This document shows positions 1,948 to 53,254 of a DNA stretch of 53,254 bases, one piece after another. The notes beneath the pieces are model-generated. The model was given only the letters and a program-made list of their open reading frames with translations. It made no database searches and was not told the DNA's origin. The DNA lies in the IMG/VR virus record IMGVR_UViG_3300010052_000163, positions 1 through 53,254 of that record; one strand, given 5' to 3'. The DNA is from a virus. Lineage: Duplodnaviria > Caudoviricetes. The translations under genes were made by a program, and so were the position numbers. The first letter of the stretch is position 1. Each line of letters starts with the position of its first letter.

Positions 1948-2388
1948 ATGGCGCGCATCGAAGAACAAATGGCTGGCCTGGCGACTATGTCGCCGGCCCG
2001 GCTGCGTGCGGAATGGCGACGTTTGAACCGTGGACAGCCGCTGACCGAGGGCCTCACGTCGAGCCAGCTAGTCCGAAGCATCGCATGGCGCCTGCAAGAG
2101 AAGATGCAGGGAGGACTGCCGCCGACCCGAGTGCGGGAACTTGATCGCCTCGCTGGACAGCTCGAACGTGACGGTGATTTGGAAATGGCCGCGGACCGAT
2201 CCCTGAAGCCTGGTTCCCAGCTTGTCCGGCACTGGCACGGCAAGCCTTACACCGTGACGGTGCTCGATCAGGGGTTCGAGTTCGATGGACAGCTTCATTC
2301 GTCCCTAACCCAGATCGCTCGGCAGATCACCGGTGCTGCATGGTCGGGCCCTCGCTTCTTCGGGCTCACGCGGAAGGTCGCTGCATGA
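1948..2388 (+). CDS. DUF2924-like protein
   Basis: LRAEWRRL...IAWRLQE..GGL...PGSQLVRHWHG...SLTQIARQITGAAWSGPRFFGL. Confidence 0.85.
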   Translation: MARIEEQMAGLATMSPARLRAEWRRLNRGQPLTEGLTSSQLVRSIAWRLQEKMQGGLPPTRVRELDRLAGQLERDGDLEMAADRSLKPGSQLVRHWHGKPYTVTVLDQGFEFDGQLHSSLTQIARQITGAAWSGPRFFGLTRKVAA

Positions 2389-3926
2389 AACCGCAATCCT
2401 CACGCCGTCGCTGTGCCATCTACACCCGCAAATCTACGGACGAGGGTCTCGACCAGAACTTCAACAGCCTTGACGCGCAGCGTGAAGCCTGCGGCGCTTA
2501 TATTCTCAGCCAGACCCACGAAGGTTGGGAACCCACCGGTGAGCTTTACGACGATGGCGGATATTCGGGTGGGTCGATGGAACGCCCCGGTCTCCAACAA
2601 TTGCTGGAAGATGTAGAGGCCGGAAAGGTCGACATCATCGTCGTCTATAAGGTCGATCGGCTAACTCGCAGCCTCGCCGATTTTGCGCGCATCGTCGATG
2701 TGCTCGACAAGCATGGTGCATCATTCGTGAGTGTGACCCAAGCATTCAACACCACGAACAGTATGGGTCGCCTCACGCTCAATGTCCTGCTGTCCTTCGC
2801 CCAGTTTGAGCGCGAAGTGACGGGCGAGCGTATTCGAGACAAGATCGCTGCGTCGAAAGCCCGGGGCATGTGGATGGGCGGCACGGTACCGTTGGGTTAC
2901 GAGGTCAAGGACCGGAAACTCCTCGTCGTTCCTGCCGAAGCCGATAAGGTGCACCATATCTTCGAGCGCTACCTTGCTCTCGGGTCGGTCTACGACCTCC
3001 AAGCCGAGCTTGCCGCAGATGGAATATTGACCAAGTCGCGGGTGCTCAAGGATGGTCGCAATTACGGCGACAAAAATTTCAGCCGCGGCGCGCTCTATCA
3101 AATGTTGCGCAACCGGATCTATCGTGGCGAGATCACGCACCGCGGCAAATCCTATCCTGGCGAGCATGATGAGATTATCGACGCCGACACATTCGATCGG
3201 GTCGGCGAACGCCTAAGCGGCAATCAAGTCAAACAGAAGCATGCCGCCTATGCTGAAAATCCGAGCCTGTTCGCTGGGATCATATGGGATGGCGACGGGC
3301 GCCGCCTTACACCCAATCACGCAAACAAAAGCGGGGTTCGGTACCGCTATTATATCAGCCGGAAGGACAAAGAGCGGCTCGACCTGCCGATTGTGCGTGT
3401 CCCAGCCGGTGACATCGAAAACCTGCTCATCCACCAGCTCCAGCAGCATTCCGACGTAAGCTGGGACGGCCCGCGACCCGCCCGAGAGCTGATACTCGCG
3501 ACAATACGGAGAGTGACGATCCATCGCGACCGCGTGGACATCGAGTTCATCGAACGCGACGATCCGGTCTCCATCACGGCGACCCTGGTCCGTTGCAGCG
3601 GCGAGAAACGCGTTGCCGTGGCTCCGGAAAACTACCTCCATCCCCGGCCCGATGCGTCGCTCATCAAACTGATCGTTCGGGCCCACCAGGCCAGCAAGGC
3701 TCTAGCCGAACCGAAGAACACGACGATCGAAGCTGCCGCAAATTCCATGGCGGTATCGACGCCCTACTTCTGCTCGCTGCTGCGGCTAGCCCATCTCGCG
3801 CCCGATATCACGACCGCCATCCTTGACGGTCGACAGCCAGCGCACCTCAACCGGCAATTCCTCGCGCGCGTCAACAACCTGCCGATCGATTGGCACGGCC
3901 AGCGCGACATGCTGGGGTTCGTTTAG
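2385..3926 (+). CDS. Large serine recombinase
   Basis: CAIYTRKST catalytic Ser, YKVDRLTRS, SFAQFEREVTGERIRDKI, recombinase domain NRIYRGEI; ATGA overlap with upstream gene. Confidence 0.93.
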   Translation: MKPQSSRRRCAIYTRKSTDEGLDQNFNSLDAQREACGAYILSQTHEGWEPTGELYDDGGYSGGSMERPGLQQLLEDVEAGKVDIIVVYKVDRLTRSLADFARIVDVLDKHGASFVSVTQAFNTTNSMGRLTLNVLLSFAQFEREVTGERIRDKIAASKARGMWMGGTVPLGYEVKDRKLLVVPAEADKVHHIFERYLALGSVYDLQAELAADGILTKSRVLKDGRNYGDKNFSRGALYQMLRNRIYRGEITHRGKSYPGEHDEIIDADTFDRVGERLSGNQVKQKHAAYAENPSLFAGIIWDGDGRRLTPNHANKSGVRYRYYISRKDKERLDLPIVRVPAGDIENLLIHQLQQHSDVSWDGPRPARELILATIRRVTIHRDRVDIEFIERDDPVSITATLVRCSGEKRVAVAPENYLHPRPDASLIKLIVRAHQASKALAEPKNTTIEAAANSMAVSTPYFCSLLRLAHLAPDITTAILDGRQPAHLNRQFLARVNNLPIDWHGQRDMLGFV

Positions 3927-29022: not shown

Positions 29023-30939
29023 TCACGCTTCATTGATCTTGCCTTTCCAATCCAAATCCAACGGCTCGAAAATCTCAGGCCCGAACGCCAGTTCGCCAGT
29101 GAACGGACGCACAGCCTCCAAATCCAGACCCGCGGGCGCCGAATAGGTGATCGTCACATGAGGCAGATATTCGGGATAATCATGCGATGCCCCGCCTCGC
29201 ACCATGTCGTCATGGCGCGAGGCGAGGTTCCACGATGCGAATTGCAGCACCACAGCACCCTCGCCAAAGCGTTCCAGCGCGCGCGGCCCGCCTGCCTTGA
29301 CCGTCAATCCGCCATCGTCCTCATTGCCCCACGTCTCGCCCATTTTCATCGGGTCGACGGGCTGTTTCGAATAGAGGACGGTGACGTGCATGTCCGATGG
29401 ATCGAGCGTCGTCGTGAAGCCGTTTGCCTTCGCCCATGCGATCAGCGCCTTTGCCGATGCTGGTTTCAGGTCGCGGCGGACATAGAGCGGGCGCGGGGTG
29501 GCGTCGGTGAACAGGCGGGCGAAGCTGTCATTCGCAGCACGGGCAGCGGGGACACGCGCCCCGCCCCCACGAGATACCGGATCACCTCCCTCCTGTGTCA
29601 ATGCGCTCGGGTCCGTGCCGTCGTCCTCGGATGCGCCGCCGAAGCGTTCTGCTTCGGGGATCTTGTCAAGGGCAGCATCAAGCCCCGGCAACCAACCCGC
29701 CTCGACCAGCCCGTTCTGATAGGCCTCGTTGAACGCGACCTCGGGAATGGCGCCAGACATCGAAACCTTGTCCATCGCCTCGGTCCACGTCTTGAAGCGG
29801 GTTGTTTCCTCGGTCTCGGTCGGAATGTTGAGCGGCGAAAACTGCCACCAGATTTCGGGCGGCCGCGAACCAAGGGCAGACGGGATGAGCGCGGCATCGA
29901 CCTGAACAAGGCAAGGCTTGGTCTCTATTTTCTGCCCGGTCTCGACGGTTTCGCGCCAGTTGTTCGCGTCCCCTTCGCCGGTCGCGTTCAACCCCTTCGC
30001 CGAAGTCCCCCAAAAGCGGGTGAACGGAATGTCGGAGGCGGCACAGAAAGCCTCAGCAAAGCCACGGATGATCTCGGGGATGCCAGTCCACGTCACTTGG
30101 TGGCGTTCGAGCTTTTCGCCGCCCTTGCCGTCTTTGTCGCCCAGGTCGTAGAGCTTGCCGTTGAACACGGACGACCCTTGCACCATCAAACCAAGGCGGC
30201 GCATCAAGCGGGCCTCGCCGTCGGTGGTGCTGACTATGTCGAGCAACCCAGACACGCCGATGTCGACGTTGAGGGAGTCCTTGATCATCGCCGCGAACGT
30301 CGCCAGCGCCTCGTCTAGGTTCTGCGCGGATTCGAGCAGCGACGGGACACGTCCGCGGCCCCAATAGCGATCCTCATGACTTCCGCGCCACATCGACGGC
30401 AGCGGTTCGCCTCGGAAGCATACGACGCGCGACGGGTGGATACGCGTGCGGTTATTTGTGCCGTTGAACGTCCAGAATTTCGGCTGGCCATAGGTCGGGC
30501 TGGTGATTTCCTCATCCCATTCCTCGCCAGTCAGGTGCCAGCGGGTAACGACGTTGATGGCGACAAGGCCCATCTTGCCCGTCACGTTGATCGGCATGGC
30601 AGGATCACCGGCAGCGACAAGGATCAGCGCGCCTCCGCCAAGCCCGCGCAAAATTTCGGCCTGTTTGGTCTTGGCTTGCAGCTGGTGCCGTTCTTCCTCG
30701 GCCTCGATCGCCTCGATTTGCTTTTTCGTCGCCTGCCAGTCGCGCCAAGCCCGGATGCGATCGGTAGCTGGGATATTGATGGCTTTGCGCAGGGACGGGC
30801 TAGCCTCAAACGCTTCCTCGATCTGGACTGGCGTGAGGTGGAGCGACGCATAGGTTCGGCCCATCCGCGCATCGGAGCGCGTCCCTAGGCCGGTGACGAC
30901 ATTTTGCAGCCCGTCAACGAAATTGCGCACGATGCCCAT
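29023..30939 (-). CDS. DUF1073-type portal protein fused to C-terminal Acb1/57B-like 2H phosphodiesterase
   Basis: Portal: RIHPSRVV.F, DIPFTRFWGTSAKGLNATGEGD; C-terminal ~155 aa with MHVTVLYS, GASHDYPEYLPHVTITY and FEPLDLDW. Confidence 0.88.
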   Translation of the reverse strand: MGIVRNFVDGLQNVVTGLGTRSDARMGRTYASLHLTPVQIEEAFEASPSLRKAINIPATDRIRAWRDWQATKKQIEAIEAEEERHQLQAKTKQAEILRGLGGGALILVAAGDPAMPINVTGKMGLVAINVVTRWHLTGEEWDEEITSPTYGQPKFWTFNGTNNRTRIHPSRVVCFRGEPLPSMWRGSHEDRYWGRGRVPSLLESAQNLDEALATFAAMIKDSLNVDIGVSGLLDIVSTTDGEARLMRRLGLMVQGSSVFNGKLYDLGDKDGKGGEKLERHQVTWTGIPEIIRGFAEAFCAASDIPFTRFWGTSAKGLNATGEGDANNWRETVETGQKIETKPCLVQVDAALIPSALGSRPPEIWWQFSPLNIPTETEETTRFKTWTEAMDKVSMSGAIPEVAFNEAYQNGLVEAGWLPGLDAALDKIPEAERFGGASEDDGTDPSALTQEGGDPVSRGGGARVPAARAANDSFARLFTDATPRPLYVRRDLKPASAKALIAWAKANGFTTTLDPSDMHVTVLYSKQPVDPMKMGETWGNEDDGGLTVKAGGPRALERFGEGAVVLQFASWNLASRHDDMVRGGASHDYPEYLPHVTITYSAPAGLDLEAVRPFTGELAFGPEIFEPLDLDWKGKINEA

Positions 30940-40296: not shown

Positions 40297-40518
40297 TCAT
40301 GCTGCGCTCGCTTGGTCGGCAGGCACATATTCGGCCATGAACTGGCGAATTCGTTGTTCTGTGTCGCCCCACAGCCGTCGTGGGCGGGCACGATCTTGAC
40401 CGCGCAGTTCCTTGATCAACCTCCAATCGCCAGCCGCTCTCCGACCGAATGTGCTTTCGGCCATGTCATGCTGCTGGATGAACGCGTCGATCTCGCTAAG
40501 GATAGGGTGCTGTTCCAT
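40297..40518 (-). CDS. Cro-like protein
   Basis: ILSEIDAFI..HDMAESTFGRRAAGDWRLIKELR; divergent from repressor. Confidence 0.78.
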   Translation of the reverse strand: MEQHPILSEIDAFIQQHDMAESTFGRRAAGDWRLIKELRGQDRARPRRLWGDTEQRIRQFMAEYVPADQASAA

Positions 40519-40525
40519 GAGCGCG

Positions 40526-40600
40526 ATATATTGCGTGTAATTACCCGCACGTCAAGCGGATATGCGGGTCTCTACACGATATTGCGGGAAAATACCCGCG
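40526..40600. promoter_or_regulatory. OR-like region: three operators plus cro promoter
   Basis: 18-bp near-palindromes (consensus TGCGGGTAATTACCCGCA) at 40532, 40563, 40583; minus-strand TTGACG at 40550-40555. Confidence 0.8.
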
Positions 40601-40617
40601 CGCTGATAAGCGCGTTC

Positions 40618-41076
40618 ATGGACGGCGCTCCCACGATCGACATGGAAAAGCTAAGGGCCGACATGGCTGAGAAGGTCGAGCGCAGCTCGGCTCGCAAGTT
40701 CTCTCTTGCTGCGACAGGTGGGAGCAATCCCGATTTTTATCGCAATTTCCTGAACAATGGTCAGGACAAGAGATTATCCGCTGACGTGTTCGTCGGCATC
40801 GTTGCCGCCTTGGGGCGCGACCCCGTGGAATATATAAAAGGCGCAGACGTCGCTATGCGACTGCCTAGTGCAGCCGTGCTGACCAATGCGATTGCTGCGC
40901 TGCTAGAGACTGTCGGGATTGATCCTTTTGAGGACGAACGCGCGCAAAAGCTTGCGAGGCGCTTTCCAGATGCCCTTCGACAAGTCGCAGCTCTTCACGA
41001 AGGCCTGGCAGAGGATTCCGGCTTGTCTCGCGCAGAAGCCGCTCCTGATCCCGGCGGAGCTCAACCAGCAGCATGA
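40618..41076 (+). CDS. CI-like repressor without S24 peptidase domain
   Basis: N-terminal HTH-like SARKFSLAATGG.NPDFYRNFL...IVAALG; divergent from cro across operators; only 152 aa. Confidence 0.7.
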   Translation: MDGAPTIDMEKLRADMAEKVERSSARKFSLAATGGSNPDFYRNFLNNGQDKRLSADVFVGIVAALGRDPVEYIKGADVAMRLPSAAVLTNAIAALLETVGIDPFEDERAQKLARRFPDALRQVAALHEGLAEDSGLSRAEAAPDPGGAQPAA

Positions 41077-41155
41077 CTACACCAGCGCAATGCAGTGAGC
41101 ATTCGTCGCATTCCTGTGGGCAGGCAGGCTCAGATAGAATTATATTTTGTCCCAT
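40865..41155 (-). CDS. Candidate SOS-inducible antirepressor overlapping cI antisense
   Basis: CPQECDECSLHC motif plus helical tail; promoter and LexA-like box directly upstream. Confidence 0.5.
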   Translation of the reverse strand: MGQNIILSEPACPQECDECSLHCAGVVMLLVELRRDQERLLRETSRNPLPGLREELRLVEGHLESASQAFARVRPQKDQSRQSLAAQQSHWSARLH

Positions 41156-41174
41156 AGCCAAGGCAGCAACCTTT

Positions 41175-41216
41175 GTTCCGTGTTTGTACTTATACGTCTA
41201 GGAAATTTCCTAGCAA
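41175..41216 (-). promoter_or_regulatory. Sigma70-like promoter with LexA-like box
   Basis: TTGCTA-N16-TATAAG (minus); GTTC-N7-GTAC at 41175-41189; perfect palindrome CTAGGAAATTTCCTAG at 41198-41213. Confidence 0.55.
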
Positions 41217-41451
41217 TAGGAACAAGGATCATGGCTGTGGAAAACTTTCTAAGACGTTGAATATAAGTTCCTATTTCGCATTTTTTAACGATAGCCAATG
41301 CGATTTGACGCAGATTTCCTATTTATACGGGTTGACGTATAAGGCGGTCGGGGTTTGCGCGCGATTGCGGCAGATAGGACGGCGCGCCCAAGCGTGCCGG
41401 GCCAGAATCGCTTATCTTGCACCCGATCGACGATCGAGGTAGAATAGGCGA

Positions 41452-41588: not shown

Positions 41589-43382
41589 TCACTTTCGGCT
41601 AAAGTCCTTTTCGAATTTTTCTCGCAGCATCCTGGCGCCAGACAGCGTTAGGTGCCCGTCATCGAAATATGCTGGCGCCCCCGTCGGATCTTGAATCCGG
41701 CATTTAGGGGTGCATATCGAAGGCGCGGCTTGGATTATCCTAATGCCATCCCTTTCCAGAGCAGCCAATTTCTGGCCGTTGCGATCGCCGTAATCCCAGA
41801 GATTTTGCGAAGGTTCGGCTGGGATGCCTTTGTGCCGAAGGTAGAGCGTCAGAAGCACGTTATTCCGGTATACTGGAACGGGGGCAATCAGGATCGTCTC
41901 GATCCCCAAGGCCTCCAATGCGCGGCTAGCCTCAATAATTTTCGACGCATCTAGGTTGCTCGGGGCATAGTGGAAATACACCCTTTCCGGTTTGCGCCTT
42001 CTGGCTTGTTCAACTAGCCAGGCGATGTCGAATTTGCCGCCTATAAGGGGCGCGTTATCCACCGAGAAGTAAGTCCTGAATCCGGCCTTCCCTGCGACAT
42101 CGGCGAAGGTCGTCTTGATTGCGTCGGAGTGGCTGTCACCGATCAGGAATATTGTTCGCCTGCCCTCGCTCACCGCGCAAAGACTTTCTTGCGGCGCGAT
42201 GATACGAACCAGCTTCCCGCAACGATAGACGGCGCGATCGGTGTAGCCTCTGAATATCTGCTGATCGGCGGGGGAGAAGCGTTTCATCTGGATTGGCGCG
42301 GACGCGAATCCAACGACAAGCAGGACACTAGCAGCCACCACGCTTCGACGGACGGTAAACATCTTCGGCCCCGGCTTTTCGAAAGCCCGGTAAAGTAGGA
42401 TAGTGAAAGCTGCGATCAGGAGGGCCGCGACAACAAATTGAGGTGGCGTCCGCGGTGCGTTGACCGTGCCACCGAACGGCACATAGAGGAGCAGGACAAG
42501 CGCCGGCCAATGCGCGAGATAGAGCGAGTAGGAGATGTTGCCGAGCCGCTGAGCGGCCAACCCTATGCGCGACGCCACCAAGATAGGGCTAAGAGGGTTC
42601 GCGAGCGCCAAGGCCGCGCCTATTGAGATGGCCACAGCGGCAAGACCGGGGTGGCCCCATATCAGATCCGATTGGTCGACAGAAAGCGGCACGAACGGGA
42701 TCGCGATCATGGCCACCAGCCCCGCGAGACCAATCCGGCTATCTGTCTTGCCAGTCCAGTTTGCCGCCATCATGCCCAAGCCGAACTGCCACAATCGAGC
42801 TGGCATCATAAAGAAAGCGGTTTTTGGGCTGACCATCATAAGGGCGAAGCACAGCCCGAGCGAGCCGATGATAACGAGCCAAAGCAGCCAGCTTCTCCCC
42901 CGGCAGGCCCACGCGATCAATGGGAACAGCAGATAGAATTGGATTTCTGCGCCTAGCGACCAGAGGTGCAGCAGCGGGTTGAACTGTTCCTTGGCGAAAT
43001 ATGAGTTTTGCGCCCAGAAGCCGAAATTCGATGCGAAGAATGATGCGAATAATGCCTGCTCTGAGACCTGCCCGAACTCGATCGGCAGCGTTATAAAAGC
43101 TGCGGCTAGAACTGTCGCAAACACTGTCGCGAAATATGCTGGCAGCAGCCGGCGCGCCCTTCGAGTGTAGAATGATGTCGCGGTTGACCCTGCCGGATGC
43201 AGTTTCTGCATCAGGAAGCCGCTCACCACAAAAAAGATGTCGACGCCGAGAAAGCCCGACTGAAATCCGGGAACCCCCATGTGAAACAACACCACGACGG
43301 CAACCGCCACGGCCCGAAATATCTGAATGTCGCCCCTGTATTGCACCATCATTGGCCTATCGAGTGCTGCCTCAGCCATCAA
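41589..43382 (-). CDS. Acyltransferase-3 + SGNH O-acetyltransferase (OafA/OafB/OatA-like architecture)
   Basis: RAVAV..VVLFH, GVDIFFVVSGFL, RRARRLLP, HLWSLGAEIQFY, SYSLYLAHWP; IGDSH and DDGHL. Confidence 0.92.
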   Translation of the reverse strand: MMAEAALDRPMMVQYRGDIQIFRAVAVAVVVLFHMGVPGFQSGFLGVDIFFVVSGFLMQKLHPAGSTATSFYTRRARRLLPAYFATVFATVLAAAFITLPIEFGQVSEQALFASFFASNFGFWAQNSYFAKEQFNPLLHLWSLGAEIQFYLLFPLIAWACRGRSWLLWLVIIGSLGLCFALMMVSPKTAFFMMPARLWQFGLGMMAANWTGKTDSRIGLAGLVAMIAIPFVPLSVDQSDLIWGHPGLAAVAISIGAALALANPLSPILVASRIGLAAQRLGNISYSLYLAHWPALVLLLYVPFGGTVNAPRTPPQFVVAALLIAAFTILLYRAFEKPGPKMFTVRRSVVAASVLLVVGFASAPIQMKRFSPADQQIFRGYTDRAVYRCGKLVRIIAPQESLCAVSEGRRTIFLIGDSHSDAIKTTFADVAGKAGFRTYFSVDNAPLIGGKFDIAWLVEQARRRKPERVYFHYAPSNLDASKIIEASRALEALGIETILIAPVPVYRNNVLLTLYLRHKGIPAEPSQNLWDYGDRNGQKLAALERDGIRIIQAAPSICTPKCRIQDPTGAPAYFDDGHLTLSGARMLREKFEKDFSRK

Positions 43383-43430: not shown

Positions 43431-43486
43431 TGCGGGAACTTACCCGCATTTTATGCTTGACGCGTGTAATTACCCGCATCTATAAC
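43431..43486 (+). promoter_or_regulatory. PL/OL-like promoter with two operators
   Basis: Operators at 43431-43448 and 43461-43478; TTGACG at 43457, TATAAC at 43481. Confidence 0.82.
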
Positions 43487-52134: not shown

Positions 52135-52451
52135 CGGCGGAGCGTCCCTATTCGCCTGAGACGCTGGCTGATCGCTGGGGTTGCTCGGCGGAGAAGGTAC
52201 GGCTTATGTGTCGCGCCGGGGAACTCTCCAGCTTCAGGCTGGGGAAACTGATTCGCATCCCCGCGAGCGATGTGGAGCGGTACGAGTGCCAGAATACAGC
52301 CTCACCCAGCACCGAGGGAAATGGGCCGTCACTTTCAGAGAGGGAAGCCAACGCTTTCGAATCTCGACTGGTACGGCAGACCGCGGGCTTGCCGAGGCTC
52401 GCGCCGGTGAACTGTGGCGAAGGCGAACAGCCGCGCCGAGCGAACGGGTAG
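52131..52451 (+). CDS. xis: Excisionase-like HTH protein
   Basis: YSPETLADRWGCS.EKVRLMCRAGEL.SFRLGKLIRIP..DVERYE; upstream of integrase. Confidence 0.8.
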   Translation: MTAERPYSPETLADRWGCSAEKVRLMCRAGELSSFRLGKLIRIPASDVERYECQNTASPSTEGNGPSLSEREANAFESRLVRQTAGLPRLAPVNCGEGEQPRRANG

Positions 52452-53254
52452 CAGACCTATGGCCGCGATACGTCAAGGACAGGATTGGGGACGGCGCGAG
52501 ACCAGATCGCTTCAAGGCGCACTGGACCGCGTTGGGGCCTGTATTCGGGCACCGCATCGGCGCCGCGATAACGCGCGAGGATTGCCGGGCCTATTTCGAG
52601 CAGCAGAAAGCAGCCGGTTACGCGAACAGCACGGTCAAGACCGATCTGGAATTGCTGCGAGCCTGCCTTCGATGGAGATACGGCAAGAGCGCACCGAAGA
52701 TATGGATACCCCCGCCGTCCGCCCCGCGCGACAATTCGCTGACCAAGGAGCAGGCGCGCGCGCTGATAGAGGCGACCGATACGCCTCACATCAAACTGTT
52801 TCTGACGCTGGGGCTGGCGACCGGTGCGCGAGCTGCGGCAATACTGGACCTGACATGGGATCGCGTGCGCTTCGATCAGGGCACCATAGATTATCGCCCG
52901 GCTGGCAGGGAAGTGACGAACAAGCGCCGTACCGTCGTGCCCATGAACGCCAAGGCGCGAGAGGCTTTGCAGGAGGCGTACGAGGCCCGTCTGACGGATC
53001 ACGTCATCGAGTACGGGGGCAGGCCGGTGAAGTCGGTCAAAAAGGCGATTCAGAGGCTTTCCGAGCGTACCGGCATTCCGGTGTCGCCCCACGTCTTGCG
53101 TCACACCTGCGCGGTCTGGATGGCGCAAGCCGACGTGCCGATGCAAAAGATTTCGCAGTACCTAGGGCACACATCGCTGCGTATGACCGAGCAGGTTTAT
53201 GCGCGGTACTCACCCTCGTTTATGCGCGATGCCGGGGAGGCCGTGAACTGGTAA
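52286..53254 (+). CDS. int: Tyrosine integrase
   Basis: TGAR, KRR, HVLRHT, LGH, VYARY; GTG 52286 with GGAG RBS. Confidence 0.95.
   Translation: MPEYSLTQHRGKWAVTFREGSQRFRISTGTADRGLAEARAGELWRRRTAAPSERVADLWPRYVKDRIGDGARPDRFKAHWTALGPVFGHRIGAAITREDCRAYFEQQKAAGYANSTVKTDLELLRACLRWRYGKSAPKIWIPPPSAPRDNSLTKEQARALIEATDTPHIKLFLTLGLATGARAAAILDLTWDRVRFDQGTIDYRPAGREVTNKRRTVVPMNAKAREALQEAYEARLTDHVIEYGGRPVKSVKKAIQRLSERTGIPVSPHVLRHTCAVWMAQADVPMQKISQYLGHTSLRMTEQVYARYSPSFMRDAGEAVNW

Follow-up and report, generated by a model that had tools for sequence, protein, structure and literature searches.

Background

Phages 186 and N15 have repressors lacking a cleavage domain and are induced by the LexA-gated antirepressors Tum and AntC, and GfoA and GfhA of the Gifsy prophages are reportedly LexA-controlled antirepressors as well; the genes for antirepressors of this kind lie elsewhere in the genome and are not known to overlap the repressor gene. 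Here we analyse a locus with a long antisense overlap, found in the complete 53,254-base virus record IMGVR_UViG_3300010052_000163 of IMG/VR (Duplodnaviria; Caudoviricetes), the whole of which is called the window below. At this locus an open reading frame (ORF) with a C-x3-C-x2-C-x3-C cluster, named Cys4 here, runs convergently into the 3' end of an ORF for 152 amino acids (aa) at the repressor position, and starts just downstream of a promoter-like sequence with a LexA-type box. Based on sequence comparison, we suggest with a probability of about 0.6 that a Cys4 antirepressor induced by the SOS response, together with convergent transcription, wakes a prophage that lacks a cleavable repressor. 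LexA-gated antirepressors as such are already established, and what appears to be new here is the Cys4 cluster, the occurrence in Sphingomonadales, a longer and partly dual-constrained overlap, and the lack of common sequence.

Several described systems share part of this arrangement. Like the systems of 186 Tum, N15 AntC, Gifsy and SPC32H, in which induction passes via a separate LexA-repressed gene, the present locus has a repressor-position protein without the S24 autoprotease domain and a separate small gene with what looks like a host-type LexA operator at its promoter; it differs from them in that theirs is the gammaproteobacterial LexA box, and Cys4 has no sequence or family match among them. 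The small proteins (~80 aa) of the Vibrio linear plasmid-like phage modules, namely Qtip and relatives, are said to inactivate a cI-type repressor, and they differ in being driven by phage transcription factors or quorum sensing instead of LexA and in not being antisense to the repressor gene. In P2 and 186 the lysogenic and lytic promoters are placed face to face and elongation from one can interfere with the other; unlike here, the convergent transcripts are those of the main lytic and lysogenic operons, and no dual-coding antisense gene or LexA box is known to be involved there. As for the lambda cI/LexA family, the locus agrees with it in the immunity position between the right and left operator regions (OR and OL), in the divergence from a Cro-position gene and in the operator pairs on both sides, while it differs in having a repressor without S24, whose C-terminal part is predicted as a ~40-residue helical domain followed by a disordered tail.

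In its layout, the closest analogue of the Cys4 module is arbitrium AimX/AimC. In the phi106 family, AimX is a small antirepressor with a LexA site upstream, is convergent with aimC over a 30 bp overlap, and was shown by experiment to exert its effect by the protein and not by antisense RNA (bioRxiv 10.1101/2025.11.23.689978). As far as the accessible part of that preprint goes, both systems have a small ORF that runs towards the 3' end of the repressor gene and is preceded closely by a LexA site, and an antisense overlap with a transcript through the repressor gene, which for Cys4 is a prediction. The same part of the source gives AimX a length of 29-80 aa, reports no Cys4 motif and places it also under AimR/AimP control; there is no sequence relation of AimX to Cys4. 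The overlap of 30 bp in phi106 compares with 188-248 nucleotides (nt) and a doubly constrained core for Cys4 and its repressor, and the AimX hosts are Firmicutes with a different LexA box, whereas the Cys4 hosts are Sphingomonadales (Alphaproteobacteria), for which the function is proposed here.

A conserved antisense gene with a LexA-type box

The repressor-position ORF occupies 40618..41076 on the plus strand and the Cys4 gene 40865..41161 on the minus strand, the latter read either from ATG 41155 (96 aa) or from TTG 41161 (98 aa) to the stop at 40865-40867. The Cys4 ORF, which contains the motif CPQECDECSLHC, overlaps the repressor ORF by 212 nt, in such a phase that repressor codon position 2 faces Cys4 codon position 3, and its four cysteine codons (C12, C16, C19 and C23; 41087..41122, minus strand) lie outside the repressor ORF. 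Upstream of it, at 41189..41216 on the minus strand, the sequence reads as a promoter, TTGCTA (41216-41211)-N16-TATAAG (41194-41189), which is missing from a consensus promoter scan because the -10 ends in G. A LexA-type SOS box with one mismatch, GTTC-N7-GTAC (41175..41189; GTAC-N7-GAAC on the Cys4 strand), is located between the -10 hexamer and the ribosome-binding site and has base 41189 in common with the -10. The main features had been pointed out in a first-pass annotation made from the letters alone, and our analysis finds every one of them: the promoter and the box abutting its -10 are present base for base over 41216-41175, as are the start codon, the 96-aa frame, the Cys motif and the 212-nt overlap with the end of the cI-position gene.

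Overall, the arrangement was found at 23 distinct loci including the window, with Sphingomonadales genomes, metagenomes and IMG/VR as sources. Eleven of them are the window together with 14 fetched loci (L001-L014, on genome and metagenome contigs) after duplicate removal; 401 Sphingomonadales genomes, searched in six frames with a profile, contained 11 matching places in 10 genomes, which added 9 new loci, and IMG/VR gave 5 loci, 3 of them new. Dropped as duplicates were L001=L003, L008=L007, L010=L009, L071=L003 and L072=L004, and the partial L014 was counted with the near-identical L005. At all 23 loci there is an open convergent ORF of ~96 aa that reaches into the 3' end of a plus-strand gene of helix-turn-helix (HTH) type, and at all 23 it carries P-x-C-x3-C-x2-C-x3-C-A, so that the openness of the frame and the invariance of the Cys motif at homologous loci, a check that the first-pass annotation had proposed, are borne out. 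Thirteen loci have an overlap of 212 nt, two have 209 nt and the remaining eight range over 188-248 nt, and the frame offset is identical in the 20 loci measured, three IMG/VR loci giving the overlap length only. Across the relatives, the arrangement is far beyond chance. Elsewhere, a sample of 400 genomes of other Alphaproteobacteria, with at most 12 first-look candidates scored per genome, yielded one weak match (E 8.9e-4, within an 841-aa frame) that was judged probably spurious, which means not found in those searched and does not mean absence. Among 50,697 deposited phage records there was no tblastn match to the repressor or Cys4 and no blastn match to the region, and among 72,556 deposited plasmid records no tblastn match to Cys4. 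Among sequencing runs, one DNA data set, a synthetic metagenome, and no RNA data set were listed as containing the DNA.

The box shows the same pattern. The GTTC-N7-GTTC motif was first defined in Rhodobacter and Rhizobium. This consensus is published as the LexA motif of Caulobacter (bioRxiv 10.1101/2025.01.26.634973). As a host control, a perfect box is present 33-91 nt upstream of lexA and recA in 6/6 genes, from two Novosphingobium genomes and one Sphingobium genome. At the phage loci a perfect box is found in 20/23, in one orientation at 19 of them and inverted at L066; it lies 15-45 nt upstream of the Cys4 start, directly after a -10-like element and ahead of a Shine-Dalgarno (SD)-like motif, and in one case it is letter for letter the lexA box of genome G001. 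In most loci the promoter-like sequence has the form TTCCTA-N16-TA(K)(R)(R)(K) and runs into the first GAAC. With ~150 perfect boxes per 5-Mb Sphingomonad genome, ~0.1 would be expected by chance in 23 upstream stretches, versus 20 observed. One mismatch is seen in the remaining three loci, namely the window (GTAC), L006 (GTGC) and L064 (GTTT). As to the LexA-like box claimed earlier, the motif in the family is the one found at the host lexA and recA genes; a correction applies to the window, whose own copy is a one-mismatch variant. Since the ORF and its Cys motif are conserved, the boxes are perfect at 20/23 loci and the host lexA and recA boxes are the same, sequence comparison gives good support to a LexA-boxed, protein-coding antisense gene beside a repressor without a cleavage domain. 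A tandem box pair in L043 (G001) was set aside in favour of the direct lexA and recA look-ups.

The direct repeat might instead be bound by another regulator, either a phage protein like the LexA N-terminal domain or a factor of the TAGGAAATTTCCTA palindrome, in which case the gene would not be under damage control. The imperfect box of the window would suit this, as would a second conserved palindrome over the -35 region, CTAGGAAATTTCCTAG (41198..41213), which occurs once in the window and may be a site for a second regulator; AGGAAWWTTCCT is found in 6/20 loci (window, L002, L003, L005, L059 and L065) and TAGGAAW in 11/20 at a similar distance. It would also suit a short protein encoded in the early operon of a related Novosphingobium prophage (L048, 1333-1767, minus strand; G001:C6:389103-389300), which has 144 aa with a LexA_DNA_bind domain and no room for S24, and which may be a phage LexA mimic on the same boxes. 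We nevertheless regard control by such a regulator as improbable, since the motif is the one upstream of the host lexA and recA genes in all six cases, is perfect at the great majority of phage loci, and once is identical to the G001 lexA box. Further short ORFs with a LexA N-terminal domain exist elsewhere, two in G003 and one more in G001. Near the promoter there is also a DnaA-box-like sequence TGTGGATAA, ~125-135 nt past the first Cys codon; it is perfect in 3/20 loci (L005, L013 and L060) and has one mismatch in 2/20, L004 and the window (TGTGGAAAA, 41235-41243).

Coding on both strands of the overlap

In the window alone, synonymous recoding of the last 70 repressor codons leaves the Cys4 frame open in 41% of cases, and the Cys4 ORF in the window is by itself not above chance. 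Over the 11 loci the chance openness of the Cys4 frame is 0.10-0.41 per locus with a product of 8e-8, and that of the repressor tail is 0.16-0.86 per locus with a product of 5e-5, the loci being non-independent in both products. The substitution patterns, computed from the 11 sequences as the ratio of nonsynonymous to synonymous differences (pN/pS), show how the constraint is distributed. Cys4 residues 2-26, outside the overlap and including the Cys motif, have pN/pS of 0.49 with codon position 3 the most variable, and the N-terminal part of the repressor has 0.53. Where Cys4 residues 27-58 face the repressor tail 121-152, pN/pS is 0.62 in the Cys4 frame and 1.23 in the repressor frame; where Cys4 residues 59-76 face repressor residues 103-120 (40924..40977), it is about 0.5 in both frames (0.50 for the repressor); and where Cys4 residues 77-96 face repressor residues 83-102, it is 2.09 in the Cys4 frame and 0.34 in the repressor frame. 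In the doubly constrained stretch 40924..40977, pS falls to 0.35-0.36 and variation is low at all three codon positions. The codon-position profiles agree with the pN/pS pattern, the repressor stop codons align in 11/11 loci, and the dual-coding test detects purifying selection in both reading frames. Both strands code. Their cores are staggered, at residues 1-76 of Cys4 and 83-120 of the repressor; over about 18 codons constraint acts on both frames, and elsewhere one frame follows the constraints of the other. Because of this staggered constraint, Cys4 and the repressor are both taken as real genes. The first-pass idea of two interacting surfaces encoded on opposite strands of the same DNA needs a correction in extent: the doubly constrained part is ~18 codons and not the whole 212 nt.

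Two other explanations of the overlap are to be judged by these data. One is that antisense RNA or transcription alone matters, the open frame and the Cys motif being side effects of whatever constrains the repressor gene or an RNA element. In a 60% G+C genome such a frame is often open by chance, as the values per locus indicate, which would allow this; it is very improbable all the same. The Cys motif is encoded beyond the repressor ORF and has a protein-coding pattern, the Cys4 frame is the constrained one opposite the repressor tail, and the relatives have SD-like motifs and start codons that align. Folding of the spacer regions gave z-scores of -0.1 to -1.5, with no significant RNA structure and no convincing terminator or RNA element, which also speaks against it. 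The other explanation is that the repressor ends near residue 82 and that its 'C-terminal domain' is read-through over the Cys4 gene. The relaxed tail (pN/pS 1.23 for residues 121-152) and its likely openness by chance at single loci are what such a view could build on, yet repressor residues 83-102 are strongly constrained exactly where the Cys4 frame is not (0.34 vs 2.09), and the fixed stop in 11/11 loci and the product of 5e-5 speak against it as well; we regard it as very improbable.

The repressor-position protein and the Cys4 family

The 152-aa protein can be divided into a putative N-terminal DNA-binding part (residues 1-82), a conserved C-terminal core (83-120; 40864-40977) and a variable acidic tail (121-152). 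It has no Pfam, PHROG or NCBIfam match and no S24 domain, in accordance with the first-pass description of a cI-position gene without S24; when tested against the lambda cI/LexA family, neither this protein nor the 10 partner proteins at other loci show a Peptidase_S24 domain. Among these 10 partner proteins, 8 have a Cro/C1-type HTH (HTH_3, HTH_26 or HTH_31) and none has S24. AlphaFold (AF2) predicts the window protein (pLDDT 70.7) as helical, including a short C-terminal part, and as disordered in the tail from residue 132. Compared with the Protein Data Bank (PDB) by Foldseek, the model weakly matches P22 c2, 434 Cro, C.AhdI and SPC32H Rep, the last from the Ant-Rep structures 5d4z/5d50, with E of 0.08-1 and none at E<=0.001; sequence searches of the PDB gave nothing meaningful. 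The database relatives of the repressor number 37 including the window protein (36 others), and those with names are from Novosphingobium, Sphingopyxis and Rhizorhabdus. They run from 137 to 255 aa, and many have been extended upstream by gene callers over what is 40312-40617 in the window. Such extension produces a false conserved N-terminal block, '...RVITRTS..AG.YTILR', in the called proteins because the DNA of the OR region is conserved. A 254-aa reading of the repressor from TTG 40312 was rejected, the 'conserved' extension being operator DNA plus the antisense of the Cro-position gene. No evident SD precedes the repressor start.

Searched with a profile, a set of 1.84 billion representative proteins yielded 28 members of the Cys4 family at E<=1e-3, and 27/27 of the fetched ones show the Cys motif. 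In a 32-row family alignment, C12, C16, C19, C23, A24 and the terminal His are invariant (32/32), and P10 is nearly so. The AlphaFold model, built with an 11-row alignment (pLDDT 74), has a low-confidence N-terminus with C12 and C16, then a helix at 17-46 with C19 and C23 and a helix at 50-73, which form a confident antiparallel hairpin (pLDDT 87-96), and finally a low-confidence third helix that corresponds to the unconstrained tail. Judging from the Cys spacing, the cluster is probably a metal site (Zn or Fe-S). The family has no Pfam, PHROG or NCBIfam match, with no Pfam hit at E<=0.01 among the 11 members scanned, which includes the described Cys4 zinc-ribbon and Fe-S families. Compared with PDB sequences, Cys4 gave nothing below E=0.1, and its fold search (Foldseek, PDB) gave generic helical hairpins alone, at E>0.3. 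In the ESM Atlas the best score was 0.76, below the level treated as meaningful, and there was no cluster match. Complex prediction for repressor residues 76-152 with Cys4, both given as alignments, returned a score of 0.01 (mark 0.32), which is neither for nor against binding. In the openly accessible literature covered, no description of the Cys4 family or of Sphingomonad antirepressors was found.

Shuffling of the module among repressors

The N-terminal and C-terminal parts of the repressors have different histories of similarity. L073 resembles the L004 type in its N-terminal part (80% identity, versus 20% to the L005 type) and the L005/L069 type in its C-terminal part (72-75% identity, versus 52% to L004). 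In P0036 and P0037 the same C-terminal part is joined to other N-terminal parts, and in P0034 and P0035 an N-terminal part of the window type precedes a different C-terminal part. The distant L060 retains 41% identity over 39 residues in the C-terminal part (pairwise E 9e-6), and for L065 pairwise comparison detects no similarity there. It thus appears from the sequences that a cassette, consisting of the repressor C-terminal domain and the Cys4 gene, sits on unrelated N-terminal HTH domains, and it travels as a unit because the two share the same DNA. We tentatively consider, as a possibility clearly short of an even chance, that this cassette is an indivisible and portable SOS sensor, with target and inactivator on complementary strands of ~200 bp; as both would be written on the same DNA, recombination would be unable to separate or mismatch them. 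The 18 doubly constrained codons may then encode two contacting helices.

Weighing the antirepressor hypothesis

In the mechanism that we propose, the repressor combines an N-terminal part of HTH type with a helical C-terminal core of ~40 residues and lacks an autocleavage domain. In the lysogen, LexA would hold the Cys4 gene off via the SOS box overlapping its promoter; upon DNA damage LexA would be cleaved and the Cys4 protein made, which would inactivate the repressor through the repressor C-terminal domain, for example by blocking its oligomerisation. Simultaneously, RNA polymerase running from the Cys4 promoter, antisense through the whole repressor gene, would lower repressor expression. 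Transcriptional interference of this type is plausible because a terminator scan and RNA folds showed no intrinsic terminator in the DNA that separates the convergent promoters. If the Cys cluster is a Zn or Fe-S site, as is possible, induction may in addition respond to redox state or metal.

Several points weigh against this hypothesis. The box of the window is by itself not above chance: it matches 7/8 specified bases of GTTC-N7-GTTC, no perfect copy occurs in the window, and one-mismatch sites number 33 there vs 44.7 expected from shuffles. As its half-site GTAC is mismatched and such sites occur at chance frequency, LexA control of the window copy may be weak or lost; speculatively, such a copy could be leakier. 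ATG 41155 lies 14 nt from the SD-like AAAGG, whose spacing suits TTG 41161 better. The role of the 152-aa protein as the lysogeny repressor is suggested by its position, the operator-like repeats and a weak fold match. Cys4 has no sequence or fold similarity to the antirepressor families compared (Tum, Ant/KilAC, AimX, Qtip and others). Since the repressor tail 121-152 and the Cys4 tail 77-96 are unconstrained, the functional overlap is much shorter than 212 nt. In addition, the co-occurrence of Cys4 with the C-terminal domain cannot by itself show an interaction, because their linkage is forced by the shared DNA.

Some of these points would also fit a Cys4 protein that is SOS-induced without being an antirepressor, such as an activator of lytic genes, a metal or redox sensor, or an inhibitor of the host cell cycle, the repressor being then affected by convergent transcription only. 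Such a role would account for the missing homology to known antirepressors and would need no contact with the C-terminal domain to which the gene is tied by its DNA, and the lack of an intrinsic terminator between the convergent promoters would give transcription its share. We think it unlikely, however, in that the cassette is found on many different HTH domains and always at the repressor-position gene, that repressors without a cleavage domain need some inducer, and that in the closest analogue, if the analogy holds, the small protein rather than the antisense RNA carries the effect. The antirepressor hypothesis thus remains the one that we prefer.

Genomic context of the locus

The window has a lambda-like gene order, in which structural and replication genes (tape measure, capsid, portal, terminase, VapE and two helicases) are on the minus strand. 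A Cro-position ORF of 73 aa (40297..40518, minus strand) is divergent from the repressor-position ORF and has no family match; a related prophage has a 76-aa homologue in the equivalent position. It heads the leftward early operon, which continues with an HTH_3 protein, a Myb-like protein, helicases and VapE. The rightward early operon contains RecE-like, RecT and cytosine methylase genes, together with a tyrosine integrase. Two operator-like palindromes (40532-40549 and 40583-40600) lie in the OR region (40532..40600), and two of the same kind (43431-43448 and 43461-43478) in the OL region (43431..43478). They have the form TGCG(T/G)G-N6-CCCGC(A/G) and make near-identical pairs at the places expected for OR and OL; their total in the window is at chance level, with 4/6 matches within the two early-promoter regions. 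As part of the whole explanation to which we give a probability of about 0.6, the locus is probably the immunity region of a lambda-like Sphingomonadales prophage.

An O-antigen acetylase moron (Acyl_transf_3 + SGNH; 41589..43382, minus strand) separates the Cys4 promoter from OL; it is on the same strand as the Cys4 gene, and from its stop to the Cys4 promoter a terminator scan and RNA folds gave no convincing terminator. In relatives such as L011, a palindrome resembling the OL site of the window is found ~230 nt past the repressor stop, with no moron intervening. On the plus strand at 41316-41343 there is a second promoter-like sequence, TTCCTA-N16-TATAAG, which resembles the Cys4 promoter in inverted form, has no SOS box and is directed into the 3' end of the acetylase gene. 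At 40599-40614, 3 nt ahead of the repressor ATG, a GC hairpin CGCGCTGATAAGCGCG is followed by a T-rich run on the minus strand and was listed as terminator-like by the scan; it could terminate the antisense transcript ahead of OR.

Besides these, a few features are present in other parts of the record. At 29023-30939 (minus strand) the portal protein, with Phage_portal_3 at residues 39-389, carries a C-terminal fusion to an Acb1 anti-CBASS domain at residues 484-633 (E 5.6e-38), for which the PHROGs label is 'RNA ligase'. The record carries both a large serine recombinase (2340-3926, plus strand) and the tyrosine integrase (52181-53254, plus strand), and its left end (1-906) has an FGE-sulfatase-like gene.

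Conclusions

If the proposed mechanism is true, it would account for the sensing of DNA damage by those Sphingomonadales prophages in which the repressor has no autocleavage domain. The Cys4 proteins are matched by no Pfam, PHROG or NCBIfam model and represent an undescribed protein family, and routine annotation seems to miss it; the two homologues with NCBI names are of the repressor and carry the label 'hypothetical protein'. With evolutionary evidence for both frames, the overlap is among the better-supported long antisense overlaps of two protein-coding phage genes. Together with AimX/AimC, a putative antirepressor gene that is convergent with its repressor gene and overlaps it suggests a recurring design that has evolved independently. 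If true, the cassette fused to any HTH domain would give a damage-inducible repressor without a protease domain, and a compact LexA-gated cassette on modular HTH repressors could serve as a genetic tool in Alphaproteobacteria.

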